DNA of 64,000 nt from positions 120,034,001 through 120,098,000 of the forward strand of contig NC_086097.1 in the NCBI RefSeq assembly GCF_963921235.1, given 5' to 3'. Below the pieces are notes generated by a model, which saw nothing but the letters and a program-made list of their open reading frames with translations, searched no databases and was not told where the DNA came from. The translations under genes and the position numbers were made by a program. Of the stretch, positions 8,417 through 64,000 are shown one piece after another (position 1 is the first letter of the stretch; the number at the start of each line of letters is the position of its first letter). The stretch is from Mobula hypostoma (taxonomy: Eukaryota).

Positions 8417-8710
8417 TAACAAACACAAAATGCTGAAGGAACTCAGCAGGTCAGGCAGCATCTATGAAAATGAATAAACAGTTGACATTTCAGGCCAAGG
8501 TGTTTCACCAGGACTGGAAAGGAAGGCTCTTTTTATGCCAGAATAAAGAGGTGGGGGAGGGGAAGGAGGCCAAGCTAGAAGCTGATGAGTGAACCCAGGT
8601 GGGCGGGAAAGTTAAAGGCCTGGAGAAGAAAGAATCTGATAGGAGAGAAGAATAGACTATGGAGAAAGGAAAGAAGGAGGGGCACTGGGGGTGGCTGGTA
8701 ATGGAAAAGA
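8417..8710 (-). mobile_element. Penelope-like element 3' terminal repeat fragment
   Basis: Terminal motif gaactcagcaggtcaggcagcatc plus purine-rich tract shared with the GIY-YIG-bearing copy at 12335-12997. Confidence 0.75.
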
Positions 8711-12334: not shown

Positions 12335-12997
12335 GCAATACACTTAAATACTGGAGGAACTCAAGAGGTCAGGCAGCATCTGTGGAAATGAATAAACAGT
12401 TGACATTTTGGACCAAAACCCCTCTTCAGGACTGGGAAGGAAGGGGAAGGACACCAGAATAAAAAGGTGGGGGGAGGGGAAGGAAGCTAGCGAGAAGATG
12501 ATGGGTGAAGCCTGGTGGGTAGCAAAGGTAAAAGGGCTGGAGAGGAAGGAATCTGATAGGAAAGGAAAGTAACCATGGGAGAAAGGGAAGGAGGAGGAGT
12601 CCTGGGGGAAGTGATAGGCAGGTGAGAAGAGGTAAAATGCCAGAGTGGAGAATAGAAGAAAAGGGGAGAGGGAAGGAATTTTTTCATATTCATACCATCA
12701 GGTTGAAGGTTACCCAGATGGAATTTAAGGTTTGCTCCTCTGCTCTGAAAGTGGCTTCATCTGAGTACGAGAGGAGGCCAGGGACTGACATGTCATAATG
12801 AGAATGGGAATCAAAATTAAAATATTTGGCCACTGGGAAGTTTCACTTTTGCCAGATGGATAGAAGGTACTCAGTGAAGCGGCCCCATAATTTATGACGG
12901 GTCTCACCAATGTAGAGGAGGCTGCATCAGGAGCATCGGATACAATAGACGACCCCAGCACATTCACAGTTGAAGCGTTGCCTCACCTGGAAGGACT
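12335..12997 (-). mobile_element. Penelope-like retroelement 3' part with GIY-YIG endonuclease remnant
   Basis: Minus strand 12995-12901 translates SFQVRQRFNCECAGVVYCIRCS*CSLLYIGET, followed by a pyrimidine-rich UTR and the terminal repeat. Confidence 0.88.
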
Positions 12998-13101
12998 GGA
13001 AGAACTTTCCTGTCTATGTATGGAAGAACTTTCCTCTTTGTGTATAGTCTGGCCTGTTCCTCATGTCCCAATATGTCAGAACCTCATCCACAACATTCAG
13101 A

Positions 13102-13299
13102 TAAAAATTGCTGGTGAATGCAGCAGGCCAGGCAGCATCTCTAGGAAGAGGTACAGTTGAAGTTTCGGGCTGAGACCCTTCTCAGCCCGAAACATCGACT
13201 GTACCTCTTCCTAGAGATGCTGCCTGGCCTGCTGCATTCACCAGCAACTTTTATGTGTGTTGCTTGAAATTCCAGCATCTGCAGATTTCCTCGTGTTTG
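13102..13299. mobile_element. Fold-back non-autonomous Penelope-terminus element
   Basis: Near-perfect inverted arms of about 75 bp around ccct (13176-13179); flanking direct repeat cacaacattcaga at 13089-13101 and 13300-13312. Confidence 0.88.
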
Positions 13300-13914
13300 C
13301 ACAACATTCAGAACCAGCTTTACAACTCATGTTCTCAGTACTACATTGATCTGCACAACTTGCCTTCTTTTAGCACATTCTACATTGGGGATTGTCAATC
13401 TTTATTTATATATGATTCTTCATGAAATTATCTTGCATTACTTTTGCTCTGTAAATTCTTGCAAGAAAATAAATTTCAAGGTAGAATATTGTAACAGGTA
13501 AGTACTTCGATAATAAATTTACTTTGAGCTTTGAACTTTCAGATCCTGTGGCTAACATTTGATAAATAAAGGTGCGAGGTAGCTCTATTCACTCAGGGTG
13601 ATCTAGCAATGGAGACCAGTGTTGGCAGCTGGGAGGTTAATCTGCCAATCTGTACTTCATCTCGATTGTTCAAGTCTGTGCCTTATGATCTAAGGAAGAA
13701 ACGTGAGTTTTGCCTTGTAAATATACTTGGGAGAGAAACTAATTAATAATGGGATCAAAGACTGAGGCGTGACTTGGTGTGCACTAGAAATCGCAGGGCC
13801 GGTAGGCTGAAGGTTAGACGCTGGAAGAACTTGCAGGTCAGGTGGCATCAATGGAGAGACATAAAGAGTTGACATATTGGGCCAAGACTTTTCATCTGTC
13901 CATCCTGATCTAGA

Positions 13915-14845
13915 TCAAAATTGAGCTTTCCTTTTTGGAGTGAAGGAGGATGGGACGTGTCTTAATAGAGGTGTACAAGATAATAAGAACCATAGATTGA
14001 GTGAGTAGCCATAGCCCTTTTTTTTTCACAGGGTCAAAATAGCTAATACAAGGGGCCATAATTTTACGCTGAGTGAAGTTAAGGATAGGGAGGATGTTGG
14101 ATGTAAGTTTTTTTACACAGAATATGGTAAGTGTGTGGAACACCTTGCCAGGGTTGGTGGTTATGGCAGATACATTGGATGTCCTGCCATTGGAGAGGGT
14201 TCACAAGGATAATTCTGGGAATGAAAGGGTTATCATATGAGGAATGTTTGATGGCTCTGGGCCTGTACTCGCTGGAATTTAGTAGGATGAGAAGATATCT
14301 CATTGAAACCTTTTGAATGTTGAAAGGCTCAGGCAGAGTAGATGTGGGAAGGATGTTTCCCATGGTTGGGGACCCTAGGATAAGAGGGCACAGCCTCAGG
14401 ATAGAGGGGCATCCATTTAAAACAGAGATGAAGTGAAATTTCTTTAGCTGGAGTGTGGTGAATTTGTGGAATTTGTTACCACAGGCAGCTGTGGAGGCCA
14501 GGTTATTGGATATCTTTAAAGCGGAGATTGATAGGTTCTTGATTGGCTATGGCATCAAAGGTTACCGGGAGAAGGTCAGGGAGTGTGACTGAGGAGGGGG
14601 GAGAAAAGGGATCAGCCATAGTTCAATGGCCAAGCAGACTCAATAGCTTAATTCTGCTCCTACATCTAATGGTCTTATGGCCTTATTAGAGATATTTAAG
14701 AAACACTTAGATAGGTACTTAATGATAGAAAAATGGAGGGCTGTGTAGGAGGGAAGGGTTAGATTGATCTGAGAGTAGTTTATAAAGTCAGCACAGAGTT
14801 TTGCTCTGAAAGGCTTTGCACTTCGCTGTAGTGTTCTACGTTCTA
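13915..14845 (+). mobile_element. Two nested CR1 3' ends (inner copy about 14178-14685)
   Basis: Outer copy breaks at gcagatacatt and resumes at agagatatttaagaaacac; inner copy encodes GMKGLSYEECLMALGLYSLEF and has its own tail. Confidence 0.8.
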
Positions 14846-19378: not shown

Positions 19379-19525
19379 GCGAAAGAGTATAGTTGAGTTT
19401 CAGGCTGTGACCATTCATCAGGACTGATGAAGGGTCTCGGCCTGAAAAGTCGACTGTACTCATTTTCATAGATGCTGCCTATGTTGCCTGGATTTCCAGC
19501 ATCTACAGATTTTCTCTTGTATGTG
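19379..19525. mobile_element. Fold-back Penelope-terminus element with back-to-back hammerhead-like cores
   Basis: Centre ttcatcaggactgatgaa; flanks ccaggaacttagt (19366-19378) and ccaggaactaagt (19526-19538). Confidence 0.8.
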
Positions 19526-24525: not shown

Positions 24526-25121
24526 AGAAAGTTTCATGGTGGTATATCTTTTTAACAACGGAAAGTGACGTCCTTGACACAATGCCACAGGTTATAAGAA
24601 TGTTCACTATTAAAGCATCAGCTGACACTGAAACTGACAGTACGCATTCACGAACCTTGAAAATGAAGATCACAGTATATGGGAGTTATAAAAACGCCAT
24701 CAGGGTGATGCATGGTGCTGTCTTCATCCTTTCTGAAAATAAACTTCTCCTTGGCATGAGTGTGCTCATTATAATTCTGCAAACAAAATTAAGTGACTAG
24801 CAGCAGTACAACAATTTTGCAAAAATTGTCAACAAAGTTGCTGCTAAAAAGATGCCAGCAGAGATTTTGACTTGTGCTTGCTGTGCTGCCAACATTTTAA
24901 GGAACCTGGTTGTAAATCTCGTCAGCAAAATGTGTTTGTGCAAGAGTAACTAGCAGATGTGAGCAAAAATCCATAATGAGTTGATACCTTGACAATTCTG
25001 TAGGTTGCACTAGATTTTTCAAGAAAACAATGAATGTGTGTAAATTGAATTAAATTGCATGCAAATTACATGCAAATTGCATTTAAACTGAAGGTAAATT
25101 GCAATCAAACTACCTCAGATC

Positions 25122-25650
25122 CCAGTGAACGCAGCAGGCCAGGCAGCATCTCTAGGAGGAGGTACAGTCGACGTTTCAGGCCGAGACCCTTCGTCAGGAC
25201 TAACTGAAGGAAGAGTTAGTAAGAGATTTGAAAGTGGGAGGGGGAGGGGGAGATCCAAAATGATAGGAGAAGACAAGAGGGGGAGGGATGGAGCCAAGAG
25301 CTGGACAGGTGATAGGCAAAGGGGATATGAGAGGATCATGGGACAGGAGGCCCAGGGAGAAGGAAAAGGCGGGGGGATGGACCCAGAGGATGGGCAAGGG
25401 GTATAGTCAGAGGGACAGAGGGAGAAATAGGAGAGTGAGAGAAAGAATATGTATATAAAAATAAATGGCGGCTGGAAATTCAAGCAACACATGTCTATCC
25501 ACGGCCTCCTCTACTGTAAAGATGAAGCCACATTCAGGTTGGAGGAACAACACCTTATATTCCGTCTGGGTAGCCTCCAACCTGATGGCATGAACACTGA
25601 CTTCTCTAACTTCCCCTAATGCCCCACCTCCCCCTCGTACCCCATCTGCT
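25122..25650. mobile_element. Young Penelope-like 3' segment with internal inversion
   Basis: 25122-25466 is UTR plus terminal repeat on -; 25488-25650 on + encodes the ORF end MSIHGLLYCKDEATFRLEEQHLIFRLGSLQPDGMNTDFSNF. Confidence 0.85.
25165..25202 (-). ncRNA. Minimal type I hammerhead ribozyme motif (Penelope-associated)
   Basis: Minus strand UAGUC-CUGACGA-AGG GUCUCGG CCU-GAAAC-GUC/GACUG: complete core, stem I AGUC/GACU, stem II AGG/CCU, palindromic ACGU in place of stem III. Confidence 0.8.
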
Positions 25651-27275
25651 ATCCCGGCAACATCCTTGTAAACCTTCTCTGCATTCTTTCAACCTTATTT
25701 ATATCCTTCCTGTAATTTGGTGACCAAAACTGAACACAATAGTCCAGATTCAGCCTCACCAATGCCTTATACAACCTCATCATAACATTCCAGCTCTTAT
25801 ACTCAATACTTCCATTAATAAAGGCCAATGTACCAAAAGCTCTCTTTACGACCCTATCTACCTGTGACGACACTTTTAGGGAATTTTGTATCTGTATTCC
25901 CAGATCCCTCTGTTCCACTGCACTCCTCAGTGCCTTACCATTAACCCTGTATGTCCTACGTTGGTTTGTCCTTCCAACGTGCAATACCTCACACTTGTCA
26001 GTATTAAACTCCATCTGCCATTTTTCAGCCCATTTTTCCAGCTGGTCCAAGTCCCTCTGCAGGCTCTGAAAACCTTCCTCACTGTCTACTACACCTCCAA
26101 TCTTTGTATCATCAGCAAACTTGCTGATCCAATTTACCACATTATCATCCAGATCATTGATATAGATGACAAATAACAATGGACCCAGCACTGATTCCTG
26201 TGGCACACCACTAGTCACAGGCCTCCACTCAGAGAAGCAATTCTCTACCACCACTCTCTGGCTTCTTCCATCGAGCCAATGTCTAATCCAATTTACCACC
26301 TCTCCATGTATACCTAGCGACTGAATTTTCCTAACTAACCTCCCATGCAGGACCTTGTCAAAGACCTTACTGAAGTCCATGTAGACAATATCCACTGCCT
26401 TCCCTTCATCCACTTTCCTGGTAACCTCCTCGAAAAACTCCAAAGATTGTTCAAACATGACCTACTACGCATAAAGCCATGTTGATTCTCCCTAATAAGC
26501 CCCTGTCTATCCAAATGCTTGTAGATTCTGTCTCTTAGTACTTCTTCCAATAACTTACCTACTACTGATGTTAAACTCACCGGCCTATAATTTCCCGGAT
26601 TACTTCTCGATCCTTTTTTAAACAACGGAACAACATGAGCCACTCTCCAATCCTCTGGCACTTCACCCGTAGACAGCGACATTTTAAATATTTCTGCCAG
26701 GGCCCCCGCAATTTCAACACTAGTCTCCTTCAGGGTCCGAGGGAACACTCTGTCAGGTCCCGGGGATTTATCCACTTTAATTTTCCTCAAGACAGCAAGC
26801 ACCTCCTCCTTTTCAATCTGTACAGTTTCCATGGTCTCACTACTTGATTCCCTCAATTCCATAGATTTCATGCCAGCTTCCTTAGTAAATACAGACGCAA
26901 AAAACCTATTTAAGATCTCCCCCATTTCCTTTGGTTCCGCACAAAGCCAACCACTCTGATCTTCAAGAGGACCAATTTCATCCCTTACAATCCTTTTGCT
27001 CTTAATATACTTGTAAAAGCTCTTTGGATTATCCTTCACTTTGACTGCCAAGGCAACCTCATGTCTTCTTTTTGCCCTCCTGATTTCTTTCTTTTCTTGC
27101 ACTTCTTATACTCCTCAAGCACCTGATTTACCCCCTGTTTCCTATACATTTCATACAACTCCCTCTTCTTCTTTATCAGAGTTGCAATATCCCTTGAGAA
27201 CCAAGGTTCCTTATTCCTATTCAATTTCCCTTTAATCCTGACAGGAACATACAAACTCTGCACTCTCAAAATTTC
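25651..27275 (-). mobile_element. CR1 ORF2 (RT) segment, young, truncated at both ends
   Basis: ORFs 26335..27102 (KSPGPD..PEDWRVAHVVPLFKKG..NYRPVSLTS) and 25649..26458 (DFSKVFD..GVPQESVLGP..KFADDTK). Confidence 0.95.
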
Positions 27276-27659
27276 CCTCTCAAAATTTCTTTCACTTTTT
27301 CACTGAACTATGAATCTCTGCCTTAAACTTGGCTGGTAATGAATTCCACAGACTAACCACCTGCTGACTGAAGAAATTCCGCCTCATTTGAGAGATGTCC
27401 TTTTATACTGAGGTTGTGCACTTAGATCCTAGCTGCTTAGATCCTAGCTGAATCTTTCAGTATTACAAAAGGCCTTAGTGAGAACCCCCCCCATCCCTGC
27501 CTCATCCTTCTGAACTCCATCAAATATAAGACCCTCCACCATCAGATTTCTGAATGGTCCATGAGTCTCTGATCATTACCTTGCTATTCCTCTTGTGTGC
27601 TTTATTCGTTTGTTTGTTTGTTTATATATGTATATCTTTGATAATAAATTTACTTTGGC

Positions 27660-28429: not shown

Positions 28430-29560
28430 CAGAATCAGAGTCAGATTTATTATTGCTGATATATGATGTGAAATTTGTTGTTTTGTGGCAGCAGGACAGT
28501 GCAAAGATGTAAAATATCTATAAATTACAAAAATAAATAATGCTAAGAGAAAAGAATACCAAGGTAGGTCTCATGGGTTTAGAGAGGGAAAGAAGCTGTT
28601 CCTAAATCATAAAAACTAGAGATTCTGCAGATGCTGGAAATCCAGAGCAATACACAAACAATTCTATAGGAATTTAGCAGGTCAGTTAGCATCTACAGAT
28701 AGGAATAAAGATTCAACCTTTTGAGCTGAGACCCTTCACCAAAACTGGAAAGGAAGGGGGAAGAGGCCAGAATAAGAAGGTGGGGTTAGGGGAAGGACTG
28801 CAAGCTGACAGGTGATAAGTGAAAACAGATGAGGGGGAAGATCGTAGGGGAAAGGGATGAGGTGGGAAGGTGCGAGGTGACAGGTGGAAATGCTAAAAGG
28901 CTGAAGAAGAAGGAATTTTATAGGAGACAAGAGGAGACCATAGGAGAAGGGGAAGGAGGAGGAGCACTGGAGGGAGATGATAGGCAACTGAGGAGAAGAT
29001 AAGGGGTAAGAGTGGGGCCTGAATGGGGAATGGAAGAAGAGAGAAGGGGGATCGGGGAGGAATATCCTAAATCATCAAGTTTTGATATTCAGGTTCCTCC
29101 ACACCAGGCTGTATTGTAACCAGTCAGAATCTCTCCACCATACACCTATAGAAATTTATAAACCTCTTTGGTGACATATGAAATATCCTTACTCCCAACA
29201 AAATAGAGACACTGACATGCATTCTCCATGATTGCATCAATGTCTTCTGCACAGATCCGCTGAGATGTATGCACCCAGGAACTTGAAGCTGTTCACCCTT
29301 TCCACAGCTGACCCCTCCTGAAGTCCACAGTCAATGCGAGGTTCTTATTCACCACTCAACCAGCTGATCTATCTTACTCTTGTAAGCCTCTTCATCTCCA
29401 TCTGAGATTCTGCAACAAAGTGGTGTCATCAGCTAGTTTATAGCTGGTGTTTAAGCTGTGTCTAGCTACACAGTCATAAGCACAGAGACAGTATTGCAGT
29501 GGGCTACGTCATATCCTTAAGGTGCATCTGTGTTGATTGCCAGTGAGAAGACGTTATCAC
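28430..29560 (-). mobile_element. Rex1 3' part interrupted by a Penelope-like fragment
   Basis: Tail gaatcagagtcagatttatt at 28432; RT-region sequence 29100-29560 includes gtggtgtcatcagc (ADDT on -). Confidence 0.7.
28611..29064 (-). mobile_element. Penelope-like 3' terminus with 11-bp TSD
   Basis: tcctaaatcat at 28600-28610 and 29065-29075; terminus ctgcagatgctggaaatcc. Confidence 0.85.
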
Positions 29561-31689: not shown

Positions 31690-32575
31690 GCAAAAAGCAT
31701 GAAGTGTAATCCTGTGGCTTGATAAAGCATTGGTCAGACCACACATTGAATATGGTGAATAGCTTTAAGACCTTTAACTAAGAAAGGATGTACTAGCATT
31801 GGAAAAGGTCTAGAGGAATTTCACAAAAATGATCCTGGGAATGAAAGGGTTATTACATGAAAAGCATTTGATGGCTCTGGGGTAACACATACAAAATGCG
31901 GAAGGAACTCAGCAGGTCAGGCATCATCTATGGAAAGGAATAAACAGTTGATGTTTTGGGCCAAGATCCTTCGTAAATCCAAAGAAAGGTCTCAACACCC
32001 ACCTCCCAAACATCAACTGTATATGACTTAAATGTAGATGCTGCCTGATTTGCTAAATTCCTCCAGTATTTTGTACTTGTTACTCTGGATTTCCAGCATC
32101 TGCAGAACCTCTTGTGTTTCTGATGGCTCTGGGCTTGTACACCCTGGAGTTTGGAAGAATGAGGGGAGGAGATCTCATTGAAGCCCATTCAATATTGAAA
32201 GGCCTGGACAGAGTGGATACGGAGAGGCTGAGTTTTATAGTGGAGAAGACTAGGACCAGAAAGCACAGCCTCAGAACACAAGGATGTTCCTTTAGAAAAA
32301 ACTGATGAGAAGGAAATTCTTCTGCCAGAGGATGGTAAATCTGTGGAATTCAATGCCACAGACAGCTGACGAGGCCAAGTCAATAGGTACAGTTAAAGCG
32401 GAGGTTGATAAGTTCTTAATTAGTAAGGATGTCAAGGGTCAGGGGGAGAAGGCAGAAAGGATAGTGTTGAGAGGGATAATAAGTCATGCATGATGGAATG
32501 ACAGAGAGGACACAATGGGTTAAATGTACTTGTTCTGCTCCTATGTTTTATGGTGTATGGTCTTATGGTCTTTAT
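31690..32575 (+). mobile_element. CR1 3' part
   Basis: LMALGLYTLEFGRMRGGDLIE and FFCQRMVNLWNS; tail tatggtcttatggtc. Confidence 0.85.
31882..32120. mobile_element. Fold-back Penelope-terminus element nested in CR1
   Basis: Inverted arms (cagcaggtcaggcatcatcta / tagatgctgcctgatttgct); exact flanking repeat tgatggctctggg at 31869-31881 and 32121-32133. Confidence 0.85.
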
Positions 32576-39668: not shown

Positions 39669-40622
39669 CATAGAAACCATAGAAAAACTACAGCACAGAA
39701 ACAGGCCTTTTGGCCCTTCTTGGCTGTGCCAAACCATTTTCTGCCTAGTCCCACTGACCTGTACACGGACCATATCCTTCCATACACCTCCCATCCATGT
39801 ATCTGTCCAACTTATTCTTAAATGTTAAAAAATAACCTGCATTTACCACCTCGTCTGGCAGCTCATTCCATACTCCCACCACTCTCTGTGTGAAGAAGCC
39901 CCCCTAATGTTCCCTTTAAACTTTTCCCCCCTCACCCTAAACCCACGTCCTCTTGTTTTTTTCTCCCCTTGCCTCAGTGGAAAAAGCCTGCTTGCATTCA
40001 CTCTATCTATACCCATCATAACTTTATATACCTCTATCAAATCTCCCCTCATTCTTCTACGCTCCAGGGAATAAAGTCCTAACCTATTCAACCTTTCTCT
40101 GTGACTGAGTTTCTCAAGTCCTGGCAACATCCTTGTAAACCCTCTCTGCACTTTTTCAACCTTATTTATATCCTTCCTGTAATTTGGTGACCAAAACTGA
40201 ACACAATAGTCCAGATTCGGCCTCACCAGTGCCTTATACAACCTCATCATAACATTCCAGCTCTTATACTCAATACTTTGATTAATAAAGGCCAATGTAC
40301 CAAAAGCTCTCTTTATGACCCTATCTACGCCACTTTTATGACGCCACTTTTAGGGAATTTTGTATCTGTATTCCCAGATCCCTCTGTTCTACTGCACTCG
40401 TCAGTGCCTTACCATTAACCCTGTATGTTCTACGTTGGTTTGTCCTTCCAATGTGCAATACCTCACACTTGTCTGTATTAAACTCCATCTGCCATTTTTC
40501 AGCCCATTTTTCCAGCTGGTCCAAGTCCCTCTGCAGGCTCTGAAAACCTTCCTCACTGTCTACTACACCTCCAGTCTTTGTATCATCAGCAAATTTGCTG
40601 ATCCAATTTACCACATTATCAT
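39669..40622 (-). mobile_element. Nested young CR1 3' part
   Basis: Nearly identical to 25655-26150 over the shared part; own tail catagaaaccatagaaa; host APE splits at NKVD|ELEAQ. Confidence 0.92.
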
Positions 40623-40848
40623 CTACTTTATTTCTTATACTTCGTGCATTCATATATAATACTTTTAATACATTACTTTCCTCACATTTCATATCAATTC
40701 CTATTTCACTTGGCCATACTGTTTGATCCCTTCTTGAGCTTTCTGCTCCATTGATTCTGTTGTCTTTCTTAACTTTTCTTATTCTCACTTTCCCTTTAAC
40801 TCCATCCTTATATTTGCAGTTCGTCCCCTCCCCTCCCCCCCTGACTAC

Positions 40849-49119: not shown

Positions 49120-51456
49120 TAAAGAATCGCATTAGTTTCTGTATTAGCAAGCCTGTAGTCTTCATGTTCTGACCTGTGTTTTCATATTGTGGATTTCAGC
49201 TTTCGGATTACTCTCTTGGATTTAGCTGCCTTGGATCACTTCAGTAGATACATGTAAATACTGTAAATATATTGCAAATAGGATCGCCTGTGTCTGCCTT
49301 TCCCTTTTCCCGTCACAGCCAGCAGACGGCACTGAGGATGGGTTTGTTTTTATGTTGCTTCCCCAACACCCCAAGACAAAAGCCAACAAGGGGATGTAAC
49401 ATTAATTGGGGGCTCATCTGGGATGCATCCAGTTGGAGTTGTTTCATTTTGTAAAGAGTGAGCTGAAGTTTTTTCCTTCTTTTATGAGTGACCACCATGT
49501 TCTTGAGTGTTCTTCAGTTAAATTAGTGTGTTCCATCTAGGGTGTGTTCACTCCTTCCAGCAGAACACTTATTTGTTATTTTGCTTTGTTATTTTCTATT
49601 TTTTGTTTTGGGGTGTAATCCTGGGTGGAGATTGTTGGTTAGGTAGACAGGGACCAGACAGGGACCAGACGGGGACCAGAGAGTGTCCTTAAACCTCGCT
49701 AGCTGGTTTGGTTAGTACCTAATCTCACTGCTGTTGGGGTGAGAGTTTTTCAGTGTGGACATGAGCCATTTTAGAGTTTTTGAGTGATTGTATAGTAGAG
49801 CAATTAGACAAGTGCTATATGGATGGCTTGCTTGCCCTGGCAGAGCAATTTAGTATTCCTCTGATGAAACAAGCCATAAAAAGGTCATGACGCATGCTGT
49901 GTTTGAAGATTTGATGGGGTGTGTTGTTTTTACTGCTTGATGCACAGGCACCTGATGTGGGGGTGGGCGGAGAGGTACCCACAGCTGAGAAGTCTGAGGG
50001 GCAAGAGGTAGAGTAGGGAGTGGAGGCTGAGGCTGAATCATGGGCTAGCCTATCCTCCTCTAGAGCGTGGAAATCTCCCTGCATCCTGGCAACCAAGACC
50101 GATGGAACTGTCCACTTCTGCACAGATTATCTGAAAGTAAATGCTGTTACGGTGCCTGGCTCATTTCCATGGCCGCGTATGAAGGATTGCATTGGCAGAG
50201 TAGTTTCAGCCAAGTTTGTCATTAAGCTTGACCTGTTGAAAGGATATTGGCAGGTCCCGCTAAGTCCTTGTACTGCTGAAATCTCTGTCTTTGTTACACC
50301 AGACCACTTCCTCCAGTACTCCATCACGACATTTGGGATGCATAATGCACCACATTGCTCCAAAGACTTAAGTCCCTAGTTTTAGTTTCAATAGGTACAT
50401 TTAATGTCAGAGAAATGTATACAATATACATCCTGAAATTCTTTTTCTTCGCAAGCATAAACAAAAGCAGAAGAGTGCTTCAAAGAATGAATGACGTGTT
50501 TAGGTGAGGCCCCCTTGATCCTTAATTTGGTTAAGACTAACTCCGAGAAAGTTTCAGTCAGCTATCTGGTCAAAGTCATTGGCCGGGGTCAACTACCTCC
50601 AGTTGACGCAAAGTCAAGGCAATGCTTACCTTCCCTGTGCCCGATACAAAGCGGCAGCTCCTGCGCTTTCTTGGTATGGCTGGTTATCATTGATGTTTCT
50701 GTGGTAATTTCTCCACAGTCGTGCCTCCTCTCACTAACCTGCTGAGCTCTTCCCATGAGGTTGCGTTGGCCCCTGGGTGTCAGGTGTCATTTCAGCATGT
50801 GAAGACATTAGTTACTTCTCCAAGAAGTTTGATAAGCACCTAAGTAACTACCCCACCATAGAAAATGAATGCATATCCCTCCTGCTTACACTACAGCATT
50901 TCTAGGTTTACATAGGTTCCCGCTATCTCCCGGTAGTAGAATACACAGACCACAATCCCATTGTCTTTCTCTCTCGTATGCAGAACTAGAACCTTATGTG
51001 CTGGTCTTTCATTGCCCAAGATTTTAATATTGATATTCATTATTAGAAAGGGAATGAAAATGTATTTGGCAGACGTACTGTCTCGATCCATGAGTTAGTG
51101 TTAATTTTGTTGTAAAGTTGAGACATGTTTGTTCTTGTGGGTGGGCACATTCTGTGCCCATGTGCATCCGTGTTTTTGTTATCTGTTCTCTCTTCGCTCA
51201 GCTTTCTTTCTTGCAGGCGTGCCGAGCAGCTGCTACTCTCCATTTAGAGATCTGCTGGACCTTTCCCCTTGTCAGGGTTGCTGCAATTGAGATTTCAAGA
51301 GCTCAATTTAAAAAAGCAAGCCAGCATCAGGGAAGAGACAAATATGTGTCTGCTTTGTCTCTTCTCCCATCACAAACAACACACCATATTCAGGATGGAC
51401 TTGATTTTATGTCGTTTCCCCGACATCCCTAGTCGAGTCAACAAGTGGACGTAACA
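49120..51456 (+). mobile_element. Internally deleted Ty3/Gypsy LTR retrotransposon with both LTRs
   Basis: Homologous LTR ends 49290-49401 and 51345-51456 (..gtaaca); PBS; RT (FCTDYLKVN..KLDLLKGYWQVPL..FGMHNAP); RNase H (YFSKKF..ADVLSR). Confidence 0.85.
49407..49424 (+). promoter_or_regulatory. tRNA-Pro primer-binding site
   Basis: tgggggctcatctgggat versus canonical TGGGGGCTCGTCCGGGAT (two CpG-type changes), 5 nt after the LTR end. Confidence 0.8.
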
Positions 51457-52959: not shown

Positions 52960-54462
52960 CAGGTTTCCCCCGCCATCCGAAGGTAGGGCATTCCTATGAA
53001 ACGGTTCGTAAGCCGAAATGTCATAAAGTGAAGAAGCAATTACCATTTATTTATATGGGAAAATTTTGTGAGCGTTCGCAGACCCAAAAATAACCTACCA
53101 AATCATGCCAAATAGCATATAAAACCTAAAATAGCAGTAACATATAGTAAAAGCAGGAATGATATGATAAATTCACAACCTATACAAAGTAGAAATACTT
53201 CTCTACAACGATTGCCCGCACAGATCTCCATAGCCAAAATCTCACGCAAGCGCTGTTGGCATAAACGCTTTCTCCAGTAACCTTTAAACTATGAAGCTGC
53301 CAAATCTACCAAATAACACGCAAAAATACACAGCTTATATAAAGTAGAAATAATGTATGTACAGTGTAGTATCACTTACTGGAATTGGGAAAACAGCGCC
53401 GAGCACACTGATGATGGTGTGTTAGACTGAGTCATCACAGGCTGGGTGGTGCAGTGGCCCCCACCCTCCGGGCCACTGACCCGATATATTACCGTGAAGA
53501 ATGCAGAGGTAGCCGGGAGGCACACAGCACATCATTAATAAAAATGCCGAAATAAACATGCTAATTAATTAGGTGCTGCCAGGCACGTAATTAATTTGCA
53601 TGTTTATTTTGGCTTTTTTCTTAAAGATGTGCTGTGTGCCTCCCGGCTACCGCTGCGTTCTTTACGAATCGGTGCAGTATCTGTCCAGGGCCCGGGTGTT
53701 GGGGTGGTGGGACACAGGGGTGTCATCTCATCGTCGATCAGGGCAGGCAGCTCATCTTCTCCTATGATTGCCCGCCTCGATGTCAAAGGTCGAGGTTCGT
53801 CGTCTGTGGCTGATGTGGAAGGCTTGTTTGACTGCTGAGCCTCACGCATTTTTCTATCATGCAGTTGTTTGTAAGCACTCAAGCCATCCTGCAAATATCC
53901 CCTAAACCTACGTACCCTTTCAAAATTAAAGTCGTACTTTATCATTGCAGCAAAAATCTCACGCAGTTGCTTCACTTTCTGCATTCGGTTTCGATGGTTA
54001 TCCTTTCCTCTTCCAATTGCATCAGCTCTTCATCTATTAGTTCTTGGTCATGGGATGCCAAAACCTCTTCAACATCATCTTCGTCAACTTCCACAAGCCA
54101 AACTCACTTTGTCCTTGCTTCGTTCACCATGATCGAAACGCTTAATTATGTCTAGTTTTACTCTAAGTGTAACACCCTTACTCTTTCAGGCTTTTCCGAC
54201 ACCTTAGAACTCATTTTGCTAACGGCTGCTCAATGCAACATGTTTAAGCAATGCCGTTCCAAATCCGGGGCAGAGCGGCTGCTCGGGGCGCGCGCTGCCT
54301 TTTATTGCGCGCTGATTTTATCGCGCGCTGATTTTTTATCGCGTGCTGCCTTTCTTCGTAACAGTGAAAACACCTTCTGAAAGCGAAAACAGGGTACTAA
54401 CGTAGGTCTTTCGTAACAGTGAGGTTTCGTAAAGCGAACGTTCGAAAAGCGGGAGACACCTG
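52960..54462 (-). mobile_element. Tigger/pogo-like non-autonomous DNA transposon
   Basis: TA flanks; ends caggtttcccccgc and gcgggagacacctg; transposase N-terminal piece (GVTLRVKLDIIKRFDHGE) joined to an acidic C-terminal piece (EVDEDDVEEVLASHDQEL); sits in a Rex1 tail. Confidence 0.9.
53495..53663. repeat. Inverted repeat of about 75 bp per arm inside the Tigger element
   Basis: ggtagccgggaggcacacagcacatc..aattaatta versus taattaatt..gatgtgctgtgtgcctcccggctacc. Confidence 0.9.
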
Positions 54463-54604
54463 TATAACAGAACTTATGAAAAAAGATTGACAAACAACCA
54501 ATGAATAAAAGAAGACAAAATGAGCGAATAATAAATAAATAATACTGACAACATGAATTGTCAAGTACTTAAAATTGAGTCTGTAGGTTGTGGAACAGTT
54601 CAGA

Positions 54605-56920: not shown

Positions 56921-57081
56921 ATAACAGACACAAAAAGCCTGAGGAGCTCAGCAGGTCAGGCAGCATCTATGGAAAGAAACAAACAGTTGAATCATCCATC
57001 AGATGAAGGGTCTCAGCCGGATACATTGACTGTTTATTACTCTCCATAGATGCTGCCTGACCTGATGAGTTCCTCTAGCAT

Positions 57082-57116
<35 letters not shown>

Positions 57117-57148
57117 CTGAATTTCCAGCATCTGCAGAACCTCTTGTG
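56921..57148. mobile_element. Fold-back Penelope-terminus element containing (GT)n
   Basis: gctcagcaggtcaggcagcatctatgga versus tccatagatgctgcctgacctgatgagt; (GT)n at 57087-57112. Confidence 0.8.
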
Positions 57149-57539
57149 CAAAAGCAAAGATGGCAGGTTAATTTCCGAAATAAAGATCGTGAACGGTGTG
57201 ACCCAAAGTCTCGTGTTCCTTGAACCTGTACCATATGAAGTTCTCATCTTCAGTTTGGTCAGAAACATCCCTAGAAAAAGAAAAGAAGTGTTGCACTGAA
57301 AAATATCGATGTGTCATTTTTAAAATAAAAGAATGATTGTCAGGATCATCAAGTCAGAAGGTGAGACATTCGCCAATGGTCGTTTGAGGGTTAATTCAAT
57401 ACGTAACTTCTTAGTAAATGTGATGACCCGTGGATGCCTGCTGCTAGATCTAGATCTCATTCAGGCAGGGGCTGATAAGAAGCAGGAAACACTCTTACCT
57501 CACAAGTGAGAGTCAATAACTGTCTCCACCAAGAGAAAG

Positions 57540-59859: not shown

Positions 59860-59997
59860 AAATGAACAGTCACCATTTCAGGTCAAGGCCTTACATCGGG
59901 ACCTGATGAAGGGTCTCGACCCAAAATGTCGACCTTTTCTTTCTTTCTATAGATGCTGTCTGAGCTGCTGACTTCCTCCAGCATCTTGTATGTGCTA
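59860..59997. mobile_element. Fold-back Penelope-terminus element, decayed
   Basis: ccttacatcgggacctgatgaagggtctcgacccaaaatgtcgac..tagatgctgtctga. Confidence 0.75.
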
Positions 59998-60645: not shown

Positions 60646-62321
60646 CCTTAATGCTGATTAACATCTGTAAAATGGTGCAGATGGGTTTCTAGACCAAACT
60701 CCTTGTAGATTTGATAACAAACCTGCCATCGACAGGTTTCTGAGTCTGCTGATGTTCAACCTTGCGTTAAAAGAAGAACAGGCTTTAGATCACACACCAG
60801 GAGGCAGAGTGACTAATCATCGTTTGTGATTCAGTGGATGCATTCTTGACTCAGAAAGTTGTCCCAGGTAATAGAAGGGAATGCTGCTGCAGCAGAGAGC
60901 TATTACTGCATGCTGGGGTTTGCTGACAGGATCATTGGGCTTGCAGGCACGGCTTCGCTTTGAATGTCAGTGAGTTCACATTTTGGGTATGAATCACGTT
61001 TGCAAACTGAGTTGCACCATACCACCTGCAGAGGAAGCAGGTGGTGACATCTACCCTCATTTAGTGCTAATTTGACGTATGTCTTCTAACAAGTAAACAG
61101 CACTGACCCAGCTAAAGGATTGTGTAACCATGTACAGAAAGCCTGGTCCTTACAGCAGGTAATGCACCTTCACTTGTGTTATTTAAAGAGACTCCCAAAT
61201 ACAAACAAATTCTCTTTGGTTTGACTAAGTTTTTTTTTAATTACTTCAAAACAAAGAGTGAAATGGATCATCTGCATTAACAACCAACACAAGTTAAGCA
61301 ATACACACAAAATGCTGGAGGAAGTCAGCATCTACGGAAAGCAATAAAGAGGAGACATTTTGGGACGAGACCTTTTATTAGGACTGGGATGAGTTTGGAG
61401 GAGCCTGCAAGTGTTTCCACACATGATAGCACCCACAATGCTTGGCAGTACGATATACAACATAAGAAATCAGAGCATAATAAGTAACAAAACAACAGCA
61501 GCAGAAGAAGCCCCATTCCCCCCTTCTACCCAGCCATGCACACTGCCAGTCCTCCAGCACCAGGACAGGCTATCTCTGGCCTCCAGCGGATTCATGGATT
61601 CACAGACATTTGGCTTTCAACTTCCTAGTGGACTCACAGACACAGGATTCTGGCCGTCTGACCGCAACTTCTGAACTTCCAATCGATCTTCAGGCTTTAG
61701 TATTAGGTACCTACTCCAAGACTCACCGAATATGATGAATAAGGACCCTGATGATGAAGATTGAAGGTTCTAAGTTGTTTATTGTCATTCATCAAGACAT
61801 GAGTGTAAAGGAGAGTGAAATGATTGTTACTCTGGATCTGATGCAGCATAAAAAAAACAATAAGCGTAAAGAACACAATAAATATAAACACAACAGATTA
61901 ACTTATACATGGACAGACGAAGGCTACAGGAGTAAACCTAGACAGCAAATCCGGAGTGGAACCCCTGAGGCTGAGAGGGGGACCTTGCTGACTGGGCACC
62001 TCAGGATCTCCATACTTTCCGCCCAGGCTTGTGATGATGATCATCACCCATTGTCCTTTGAGACCGACTGGATGTACATAAAGTGACCCTAGATACAGGA
62101 GTATCTGTATATAAAGTAATTCTGACAGGAAATGATAACGTATTGGTGTGAGGGGTGTGCTGAGGTGGAAGTGTTGATCAGCCTGATGGCTTGGGGGAAG
62201 TAACACAAACAATAAGAATAAAGAAAACAATTTAAAAAAGCATGAAATGACAACAAATCAATATAAAAGCAATCCTATAAAACACACTGTACAAACAATT
62301 GTTAATACATAGACTGTTTAT

Positions 62322-63010: not shown

Positions 63011-63303
63011 ATATGACAAATAAAGCTAATTTTGATGTTTAATCTTTTTCTTTTCTTTGCCCCCAGATCATTCCAGACAAATGCAGCAAGCATCAGTCAC
63101 AGTTCCCAATTTGTAGCCAAGCATGATGAAGGTGATATATGTTTTCTTCTCAAAATTTGGAAGGTTCTTCTCCTCTGTTTGGTTTGGATTTCAAGCAGAG
63201 AATGAATCATGGTATAGAAATTCTGCAGAATCTCCCTCAACACTTGAATGCGCTGTGACTATTGACAAGAAATTAAAAAGGTCATTTCACTGATTTAACT
63301 TTA

Positions 63304-64000
63304 CAGGTGTCCCCCGCTTTTCTAACGTTTGCTTTACGAAACCTCACTGTTGCGAAAGACCTACATTTGTACCCTGTTTTCGCTAACAGAAGGTGTTTTC
63401 ACTGTTGCGAAAAAAAAGCAGCGCGCGGGGAAAATCAGCGCGCGATAAAAGGCAGCACGCGCCCCAAGCAGCCGCTCCCCCCCCCCCCCCCCGGATTCGG
63501 AACGGGTCTCACCGTCATTGCTGAAACACGTGCCTGTGAGCAGTCGTTAACAAGATGAGTTCTGAGGTATCGGAAAAGCCTAAAAGAGCTCGTAAGGGTG
63601 TTACACTTAGTGTAAAACTAGACATAATTAAGCGTTTCGATCATGGTGAACGAAGTAAGGACTAAGTGAGTTTGGCTTGTGGAAGTTGACGAAGATGATG
63701 TTGAAGAGGTTTTGGCATCCCATGACCAAACATTGATAGATGAAGAGCTGATGCAATTGGAAGAGGAGAGGATAACAATCGAAACCGAATGCAGTGGCGA
63801 ACGGACCAAAGGTGACTGTGTGAGATTTTCGCTGCAATGATAAGGTACGGCTTTAATTTTGAAAGGGTACATAGGTTTAGGGGATATTTACAGGATGGTT
63901 TGAGTCCTTATAAAGAACTGTATGATAGAAAAATGCTCGAGGCTCAGCAGTCAAGCAAGCCTTCCGCATCAGCCACAGCAGACGACGAACCTCGACCTTC
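63304..64000 (+). mobile_element. Second Tigger/pogo-like non-autonomous copy (runs off the window)
   Basis: ta|caggtgtcccccgc start; reverse complement of about 53785-54462. Confidence 0.9.

Follow-up and report, generated by a model that had tools for sequence, protein, structure and literature searches.

A repeat in the genome of the ray Mobula hypostoma raised the question of whether a short motif on its minus strand belongs to a self-cleaving RNA and, if it does, whether this one copy could still cut a transcript that runs through it. The motif lies at 25165-25202 of the window, the 64,000-nucleotide stretch of DNA analysed here, and the original prediction had read it as an intact minimal hammerhead ribozyme in a young Penelope-like terminal repeat. 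Minimal hammerheads of metazoan Penelope-like elements (PLEs) were described by Cervera and De la Pena in 2014 (PMC4209133). Our analysis indicated that the family most probably carries a dimer- or protein-assisted ribozyme, and that the window copy is a dead, truncated and inverted member of it, likely inert.

Results and Discussion

Re-reading of 25165-25202 on the minus strand confirmed the sequence as it had been written and every invariant core residue. The 38-nt motif held a complete minimal type I hammerhead core, with CUGANGA, GAAA and UH in type I order; its structure was drawn from the sequence, from pair counts on related motifs, which set the register, and from the folding energy of helix II. 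Helix I (25202-25198 with 25169-25165) had 5 bp with a U-G pair outermost, in agreement with the 4-5 bp proposed. The core from C3 to A9 occupied 25197-25191 and was followed by an extra A at 25190, placed between A9 and position 10.1 by sequence and pair counts. Helix II (25189-25186 with 25181-25178; GGGU/GCCU) consisted of a G10.1-U11.1 wobble, two G-C pairs and one U-G pair under a 4-nt loop. GAAA was found at 25177-25174, and the palindromic, loopless A15.1-C-G-U16.1 at 25174-25171 replaced helix III, so that the reduction of stem III to a self-complementary ACGU, a palindrome of the dimer type, was verified. By hammerhead numbering and the consensus in supplementary figure S3 of PMC4209133, cleavage is predicted 3' of C17 (25170), between 25170 and 25169, the same bond that had been named before.

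The one part of the drawn structure that had to be changed was helix II, for which a 3-bp AGG/CCU stem in the wrong register had been given. Over 16 related motifs, that register paired 58.3% of cells, its A-U pair forming in 1 of 16, while the extra A with a 4-bp helix II paired 96.8%, and the extra A was invariant in all 16. The folding energy of helix II was -2.3 kcal/mol in the extra-A register versus -1.1 kcal/mol in the AGG/CCU register. Among unfiltered cores from related invertebrate-type loci with a helix II of at least 3 bp, 27 of 27 had the extra A and G10.1-C11.1, and none had the AGG/CCU register. The latter was therefore rejected on folding energy, pair counts and the 27 to 0 division of well-paired relatives.

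Scanning both strands of the 64,000 bases with a minimal type I descriptor gave a single match; over 200 dinucleotide-shuffled versions, the loose descriptor averaged 0.095 matches per window and the strict one made none. Across the genome, a core-only pattern of fixed spacing, which required no stems, found 95,969 sites, or about 28 per Mb, and its reversal found 53; in 40 evenly chosen 10-kb stretches 11 core-intact motifs were counted where 11.0 were expected. The Rfam models reported no hammerhead at gathering score over the window, nor at E values up to 10 over 25050-25350. By the Rfam gathering threshold and a closed helix III, 25165-25202 is not a canonical type I hammerhead, and as a 38-mer it folded no better than shuffles (z -1.24). 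Both of these results would fit a chance arrangement within the repeat, unrelated to hammerheads. However, Rfam hammerhead models expect a closed helix III; the empty strict shuffles and the excess of 95,969 over 53 also speak against chance, as do the distant relatives described below.

These relatives were taken from metagenome loci encoding relatives of the element's open reading frame (ORF), the best 80 of 473. A descriptor open to both registers of helix II made 21 matches in 17 of the 80 loci, against 0 and 0.05 in controls. Eighteen of the 21 were on the ORF strand and 20 were in the extra-A register, and the protein match ended 349-445 nt ahead of the 13 downstream matches. A search of the same 80 loci free of any stem filter yielded 50 cores versus 2 in the reversed control, 27 of them with a helix II of at least 3 bp, and 21 of these 27 well-paired relatives had CG as the palindrome of helix III. 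The 16-motif alignment combined 2 ray and 14 invertebrate-type motifs, the latter being 14 of the 21 matches after near-duplicates and the atypical L130 were omitted. Under the corrected structure 87.4% of its cells were paired, with 45 two-sided changes, a level reached by 0 of 500 shuffles, while slid controls paired 27-43%; this covariation score is inflated by the picking of rows with a stem-requiring descriptor. The three inner pairs of helix I formed in 16 of 16 motifs, and each had changed on both sides 7-9 times. That descriptor demanded neither the invariant extra A nor the G-C pair, nor did it ask for the strand and position biases. Helices I and II are supported by covariation between families, not inside that of the ray; the covariation that had been expected of stems I and II was found for helix I and the corrected 4-bp helix II, and not for the AGG/CCU register. 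One relative (L095) carried the core and helices of the Acropora digitifera Neptune element, and two others (L103 and L118) nearly so. Distant elements thus share the core and its place with compensated stems, and this cross-family covariation already refutes the chance reading, which we consider scarcely conceivable.

Conservation within the ray was judged on 52 remnants spanning the motif (24 young and 28 old), drawn from 64 matches in 584 kb to a query centred on the ribozyme. The majority bases of young and old copies agreed at 34 of 38 ribozyme positions, at 23 of 55 positions upstream, and at 23 of 30 and 35 of 45 positions downstream. The expectation that the core is better conserved than its flanks was upheld against the upstream side; the excess over the downstream side was small, as those flanks are also fairly conserved. 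The four differences between the young and old majorities fell at the outer pair of helix I (C-G/U-G), at 10.1-11.1 (G-C/G-U), at the free N7 and at G12. Two of them retained pairing, and the one at G12 was an artefact of CpG decay in old copies.

The motif was located in the 3' part of a PLE terminal repeat (25125-25471, minus strand; purine-poor 3' UTR, ribozyme and start of the tail), which was 5'-truncated and 94.6% identical over 351 nt to a natural copy, L032. At the inversion junction stood 21 nt from the 3' tail of the element (25471-25491, minus strand), equal in sequence to the tail in sibling copies. It was joined by an inverted arm on the plus strand (25489-25652) with the last 43 ORF codons, comprising the GIY-YIG end with its stop at 25617-25619, and the first bases of the 3' UTR. 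This arm was 96.3% identical to L032, and its translation matched the ORF ends of L033, L034, L035 and L038. Because the two pieces, 25489-25652 (plus strand) and 25125-25471 (minus strand), are usually continuous in 29 sibling loci, the window copy is an inversion with its heads facing; a few bases are duplicated between the two arms. Its 3' end, at +72 from C3, falls about 20 nt before the first common end; in most young copies the element stops at +88 to +99 or +129 to +137. When 25125-25470 was compared with the ray's own genome (3.48 Gb), 2518 candidates were obtained, of which 40 were scored; the 39 others among these were 94-96% identical.

In this family the stop codon of an ORF encoding a reverse transcriptase (RT) and a GIY-YIG endonuclease precedes the hammerhead by about 300 nt. 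In eight longer siblings the ORF continued upstream through the endonuclease, a CxxxxCxxC linker and the RT, and a single ORF with RT and C-terminal GIY-YIG was seen in sibling copies 93-95% identical to the window copy, which keeps the last 43 codons only. Three of five Pfam queries with sibling ORFs returned RT PF00078 (RVT_1; E 5.8e-06) or GIY-YIG PF01541 (E 4.6e-04 and 1.1e-03), and none of these matches reached the curated cut-offs. A linker of the CKRNKCYTC type (CX2-5CxxC) was present between RT and endonuclease in the translations of L032, L033, L035 and L038. The closest named proteins, among 120 of 917 matches, were from rays (up to 91% identity) and from sharks and skates (61-71%), followed at about 50% by marine invertebrates (corals, echinoderms and molluscs).

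The CX2-5CxxC linker marks the Neptune and Nematis clades (PMC8557442). The protein of L095 was 48% identical to the ray ORF, and the L095 motif was that of the Acropora digitifera element listed as Neptune in table S1 of PMC4209133. The ray element likely belongs to the Neptune clade. Typical of PLEs are 5' truncation, inverted arms and an optional tail of 30-40 bp (PMC8557442), and the ray family had 5' truncation, a head-to-head inverted 5' arm and two tail ends, which fits an endonuclease-positive PLE. The assignment of the repeat to a Penelope-like element was thus borne out by the RT, linker and GIY-YIG of its siblings and by their inverted arms and tail ends. Long stretches of the element ORF were also contained in three public ray or skate protein models (P0001, P0003 and P0066) under the host names chitinase domain-containing 1, divergent kinase 1C and nicotinamide riboside kinase 1, probably through mis-annotation or exonisation.

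The copy had been called young, and its divergence agreed: compared with the majority bases of its closest 35 and 34 siblings, themselves chosen for similarity, it showed 9 differences over 340 positions and 3 over 156, and the medians of the siblings themselves were 2.7 and 2.9%. A contig of run X19, from a related organism, aligned to the unique flank as far as 25122 with about 97% identity and then departed from it for 247 letters, while the contigs of X20 and X21 ended at 25083. The X19 contig hints at an empty site in the relative, and because this orthologous contig parts from the window sequence at the edge of the insertion, the copy appears to be recent and lineage-specific. The motif is intact through the youth of the copy, not through selection at 25165-25202. 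Right of 25652 began a LINE fragment without its 3' end, exactly at the Penelope arm (25653-27300, minus strand); it is presumably CR1-type, and it was 96% identical to a second LINE copy at 39843-40632 (minus strand). The remainder of the forward arm beyond this LINE was not found in the 64-kb window, and since it and the LINE 3' end are missing, a deletion accompanied or followed the insertion.

The window also held nine older, decayed terminal repeats of related Penelope elements (8428-8690, 12346-12610, 13833-13935, 19416-19523, 28620-28970, 31884-31992, 56923-57150, 59889-59994 and 61300-61385), which were 50-65% identical to the young form around the motif and whose hammerhead cores were broken or decayed. 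A fragment of another retroelement RT, which we take to be LTR-type, was present at 50017-50376 on the plus strand (Pfam RVT_1, E 2.6e-05). Two long inverted repeats 9 kb apart, at 53493-54464 and 63302-63985, were 90-96% complementary and probably represent a DNA transposon family; an 84-nt hairpin occurred at 53493-53666.

The form in the window is the commonest of the family. Exact 34-mers numbered 36,060 with U at position 11.1, as in the window, and 5,457 with C, together 41,517, and reversed controls gave 0. The G-U closer at 10.1-11.1 was shared by the window copy and the dominant young subfamily, and the older form of the family had G-C. Decay of a CpG as the source of U11.1 in the window copy was rejected by the exact counts, the mirror CpG-decay 34-mer having 1,247 copies; since decay would give about equal TG and CA forms, U11.1 was already carried by the elements from which the youngest burst arose. 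In minimal PLE hammerheads G10.1-C11.1 is highly conserved, with a consensus above 80%, and not invariant (PMC4209133), and G-U closers occur in the published alignment in cichlids, Latimeria 1, Xenopus 1, Lottia 1 and 2 and Ixodes 2 (PMC4209133, supplement). The literature searched, including passages of PMC544870, offered nothing on how a G-U at 10.1-11.1 affects the rate. The loss of G-C in the dominant subfamily could reflect relaxed selection. At position 25178, most contig depth in X19 (organism I) came from the C form, which in X1 and X2 supplied between a quarter and a third. This hints weakly at an expansion of the U subfamily restricted to certain lineages, summed contig depth being a poor measure of the share of each form.

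The ends of copies would be expected to bear on whether the RNA is cut before it is copied. Patterns for foreign junctions made 192 matches at the cut, 125 at 5 nt after it and 147 at 4 nt before it. When the first 30 of each were classed, true junctions made up about 28, 16-18 and 29-30 of 30, respectively, many arising from short shared sequence in inversions. At the cut, the 30 comprised 24 inversions (13 at two short stretches shared by the arms), 4 with foreign flank and 2 tandem or indel cases; the controls comprised 12 indels, 10 inversions, 6 foreign flanks and 2 others at +5, and 24 inversions, 5 foreign flanks and 1 other at -4. Against about 96,000 intact cores, no clear peak of copy ends at the cut site was found. 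In 584 kb, none of 29 young tail-bearing pieces began at the cut and 12 began between -19 and +11 of C3, with three pairs among these 12 being the two arms of one fold-back; the 3' ends of young copies formed two groups, near +93 and near +130, the tail signature of PLEs. Because copy ends showed no peak at the cut, the copied RNA appears to have been mostly uncut.

Inversion junctions (L171-L260) often shared the ribozyme's short inverted repeats (the helix I arms; GACG/CGUC), so that the motif influences how its own element is rearranged. A short fold-back of the same family was present at 13091-13299, with arms at 13098-13175 and 13180-13257 that are 95% complementary and turn inside the ribozyme front; similar fold-backs occurred in L045 and L085.

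The absence of a peak at the cut, the clustering of 5' ends at the front edge of the motif and the inheritance of U11.1 from source elements (36,060 copies against 1,247 of the mirror decay form) could all be accommodated if the young ray motif were a catalytically degenerate passenger after the change from G-C to G-U at the base of helix II, kept for another role, such as promoter or RNA start or protein binding, or simply hitchhiking. Naiads, which are free of ribozymes, spread well (PMC8557442). Yet every core base has been retained, the old and young majorities differ at only four places, of which two keep pairs, one is the free N7 and one is decay, and G-U closers are also known from the published cichlid, Latimeria, Xenopus, Lottia and Ixodes motifs. 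We consider degeneration unlikely and favour a ribozyme that works with a partner.

In this favoured reading, the loopless helix III can form only between two motifs, which would join by base pairing of the ACGU palindromes and exchange the strands of helix I. Tandem element transcripts, as inferred from known families, would supply the paired motifs, and the parent element RNA would be cut after GUC only as a dimer, likely with the element's protein. Judging from genomic ends, most new copies were reverse-transcribed from RNA uncut at the ribozyme; because most derive from uncut RNA, cleavage would be a slow or late step unneeded for insertion, serving to process or circularise tandem RNA. 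Published behaviour is similar: a minimal PLE hammerhead, the Schistosoma motif, showed no cleavage as a monomer and low cleavage as a dimer (PMC4209133), dimer cleavage was reported by Lunse et al., as summarised in a review (PMC6765202), and the Anolis motif requires the element's protein in order to cut, insertion persists when its core is mutated, and RNA reads ending at the cut were absent (PMC11167929). By nearest-neighbour energies the active dimer lay 10.5 kcal/mol above two mispaired monomers, a gap that does not single out the ray motif because those of its relatives span 1.1-16.0 kcal/mol. Folding energies were discarded as a test of activity, since a G5-N17 mispair reached a probability of at least 0.7 in 10 of 14 relatives.

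The original prediction had gone further, holding that a transcript running through this copy on the minus strand could still be cleaved by it. A function in place would require such a host transcript to be cut through pairing in trans with the RNA of another copy, or with the element's protein. The motif is identical to the commonest form of the family, partners in trans are plentiful, at about 96,000 core-intact copies, and protein-assisted cleavage is known for one PLE (PMC11167929). Nevertheless, in the 184 kb examined the nearest intact core on the same strand was 42.7 kb away on one side, with none within 60.7 kb on the other, and the pairing probability of helix I in its own flanks was at most 0.02, although most relatives were also low. 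No host exon was recognised by Pfam, in a weak test, among the 150 longest of 354 non-repeat frames, which returned one retroelement RT and one sub-threshold match. The departure of the relative's orthologous contig at the insertion edge also points to a recent, lineage-specific copy. In contigs of three runs guessed to be RNA, the repeat was covered and the unique flank uncovered, which carries no weight either way. We regard function in place as very unlikely, and the claim of continued cutting was weak given a same-strand partner at least 42.7 kb away, the inactivity of published monomers and U at 11.1; the lone window copy likely cuts little or nothing.

The ray motif shares most of its features with the minimal hammerheads of PMC4209133: type I, CUGANGA with an extra nucleotide, G at 10.1, GAAA, a loopless palindromic helix III (CG), a short helix I, a U-rich 5' side, a place in the terminal repeat behind an RT-EN ORF, and mostly lone occurrence in truncated elements. 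The nearest row there is the Acropora digitifera Neptune element, whose core and helices are carried by relatives of the ray element. It differs in its cartilaginous-fish host and in the G-U at 10.1-11.1 of its dominant subfamily, which is found in six or so of the published rows and not in their consensus. Its 95,969 core-intact copies compare with about 9,000 in Xenopus tropicalis and 4,000 in the coelacanth (PMC4209133), a rough comparison as the descriptors differ. In axolotl, which has a far larger genome, 126,247 canonical hammerheads were counted, with another descriptor (PMC7229834).

The Poseidon element PAc of Anolis carolinensis (Frangieh et al. 2024, PMC11167929) resembles the ray family in having its ribozyme near the 3' boundary, an optional tail from two RT start points, and copies made from unprocessed RNA with no ends at the cut site. 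However, PAc belongs to the Penelope/Poseidon clade, whereas the ray linker is the CX2-5CxxC of Neptune/Nematis, and the activity of PAc was measured, whereas the ray motif is known from sequence alone. Animal non-LTR retrozymes (PMC7229834; bioRxiv 10.64898/2026.07.22.740005) also have type I hammerheads in very high copy, are dimer-dependent in vertebrates and are proposed to originate from PLE terminal repeats. They are head-to-tail non-coding tandem repeats, those of axolotl with a canonical helix III and loop contacts, whereas the ray copy is a single inverted PLE fragment with a coding arm attached and its tandem partner absent. An identity as a non-LTR retrozyme was rejected on the single motif, the coding arm and the 42.7 kb to the nearest same-strand intact core.

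With canonical and minimal models, the same preprint (10.64898/2026.07.22.740005) detected retrozymes bearing type I hammerheads, in units averaging 363 bp, in one chondrichthyan genome, so hammerheads in chondrichthyans are not unreported. A minimal PLE hammerhead from a chondrichthyan was not found in the literature searched, although Lunse et al. 2017 and further supplements may hold one; portions of figure S3 and table S1 of PMC4209133 had no cartilaginous-fish row, and supplement file 2 had no shark or skate name.

Conclusions

Conservation, cross-family covariation and a palindromic helix III supported a minimal type I hammerhead in a young Penelope-like repeat of a cartilaginous fish. 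The ray hammerhead is of an already described kind, and only its copy number stands out. A bolder proposal, which we hold to be decidedly doubtful, would be that rays bear the densest hammerhead load among the genomes with printed counts compared here, that single copies are latent ribozymes activated in trans by element RNA or protein, so that a Penelope burst would clip host pre-mRNAs genome-wide, and that the change from G-C to G-U was an attenuation that aided spread. If so, sense-strand intact motifs should show a deficit in introns, stronger for the G-C form. The single locus matters little, since its motif is of a described kind and exists in tens of thousands of identical copies. The family as a whole fills a taxonomic gap in the literature searched, and it provides an unusually large natural data set on the role of PLE hammerheads, in which copy ends could be counted genome-wide, the natural G-C and G-U variants compared, and any strand bias in introns measured with great power.
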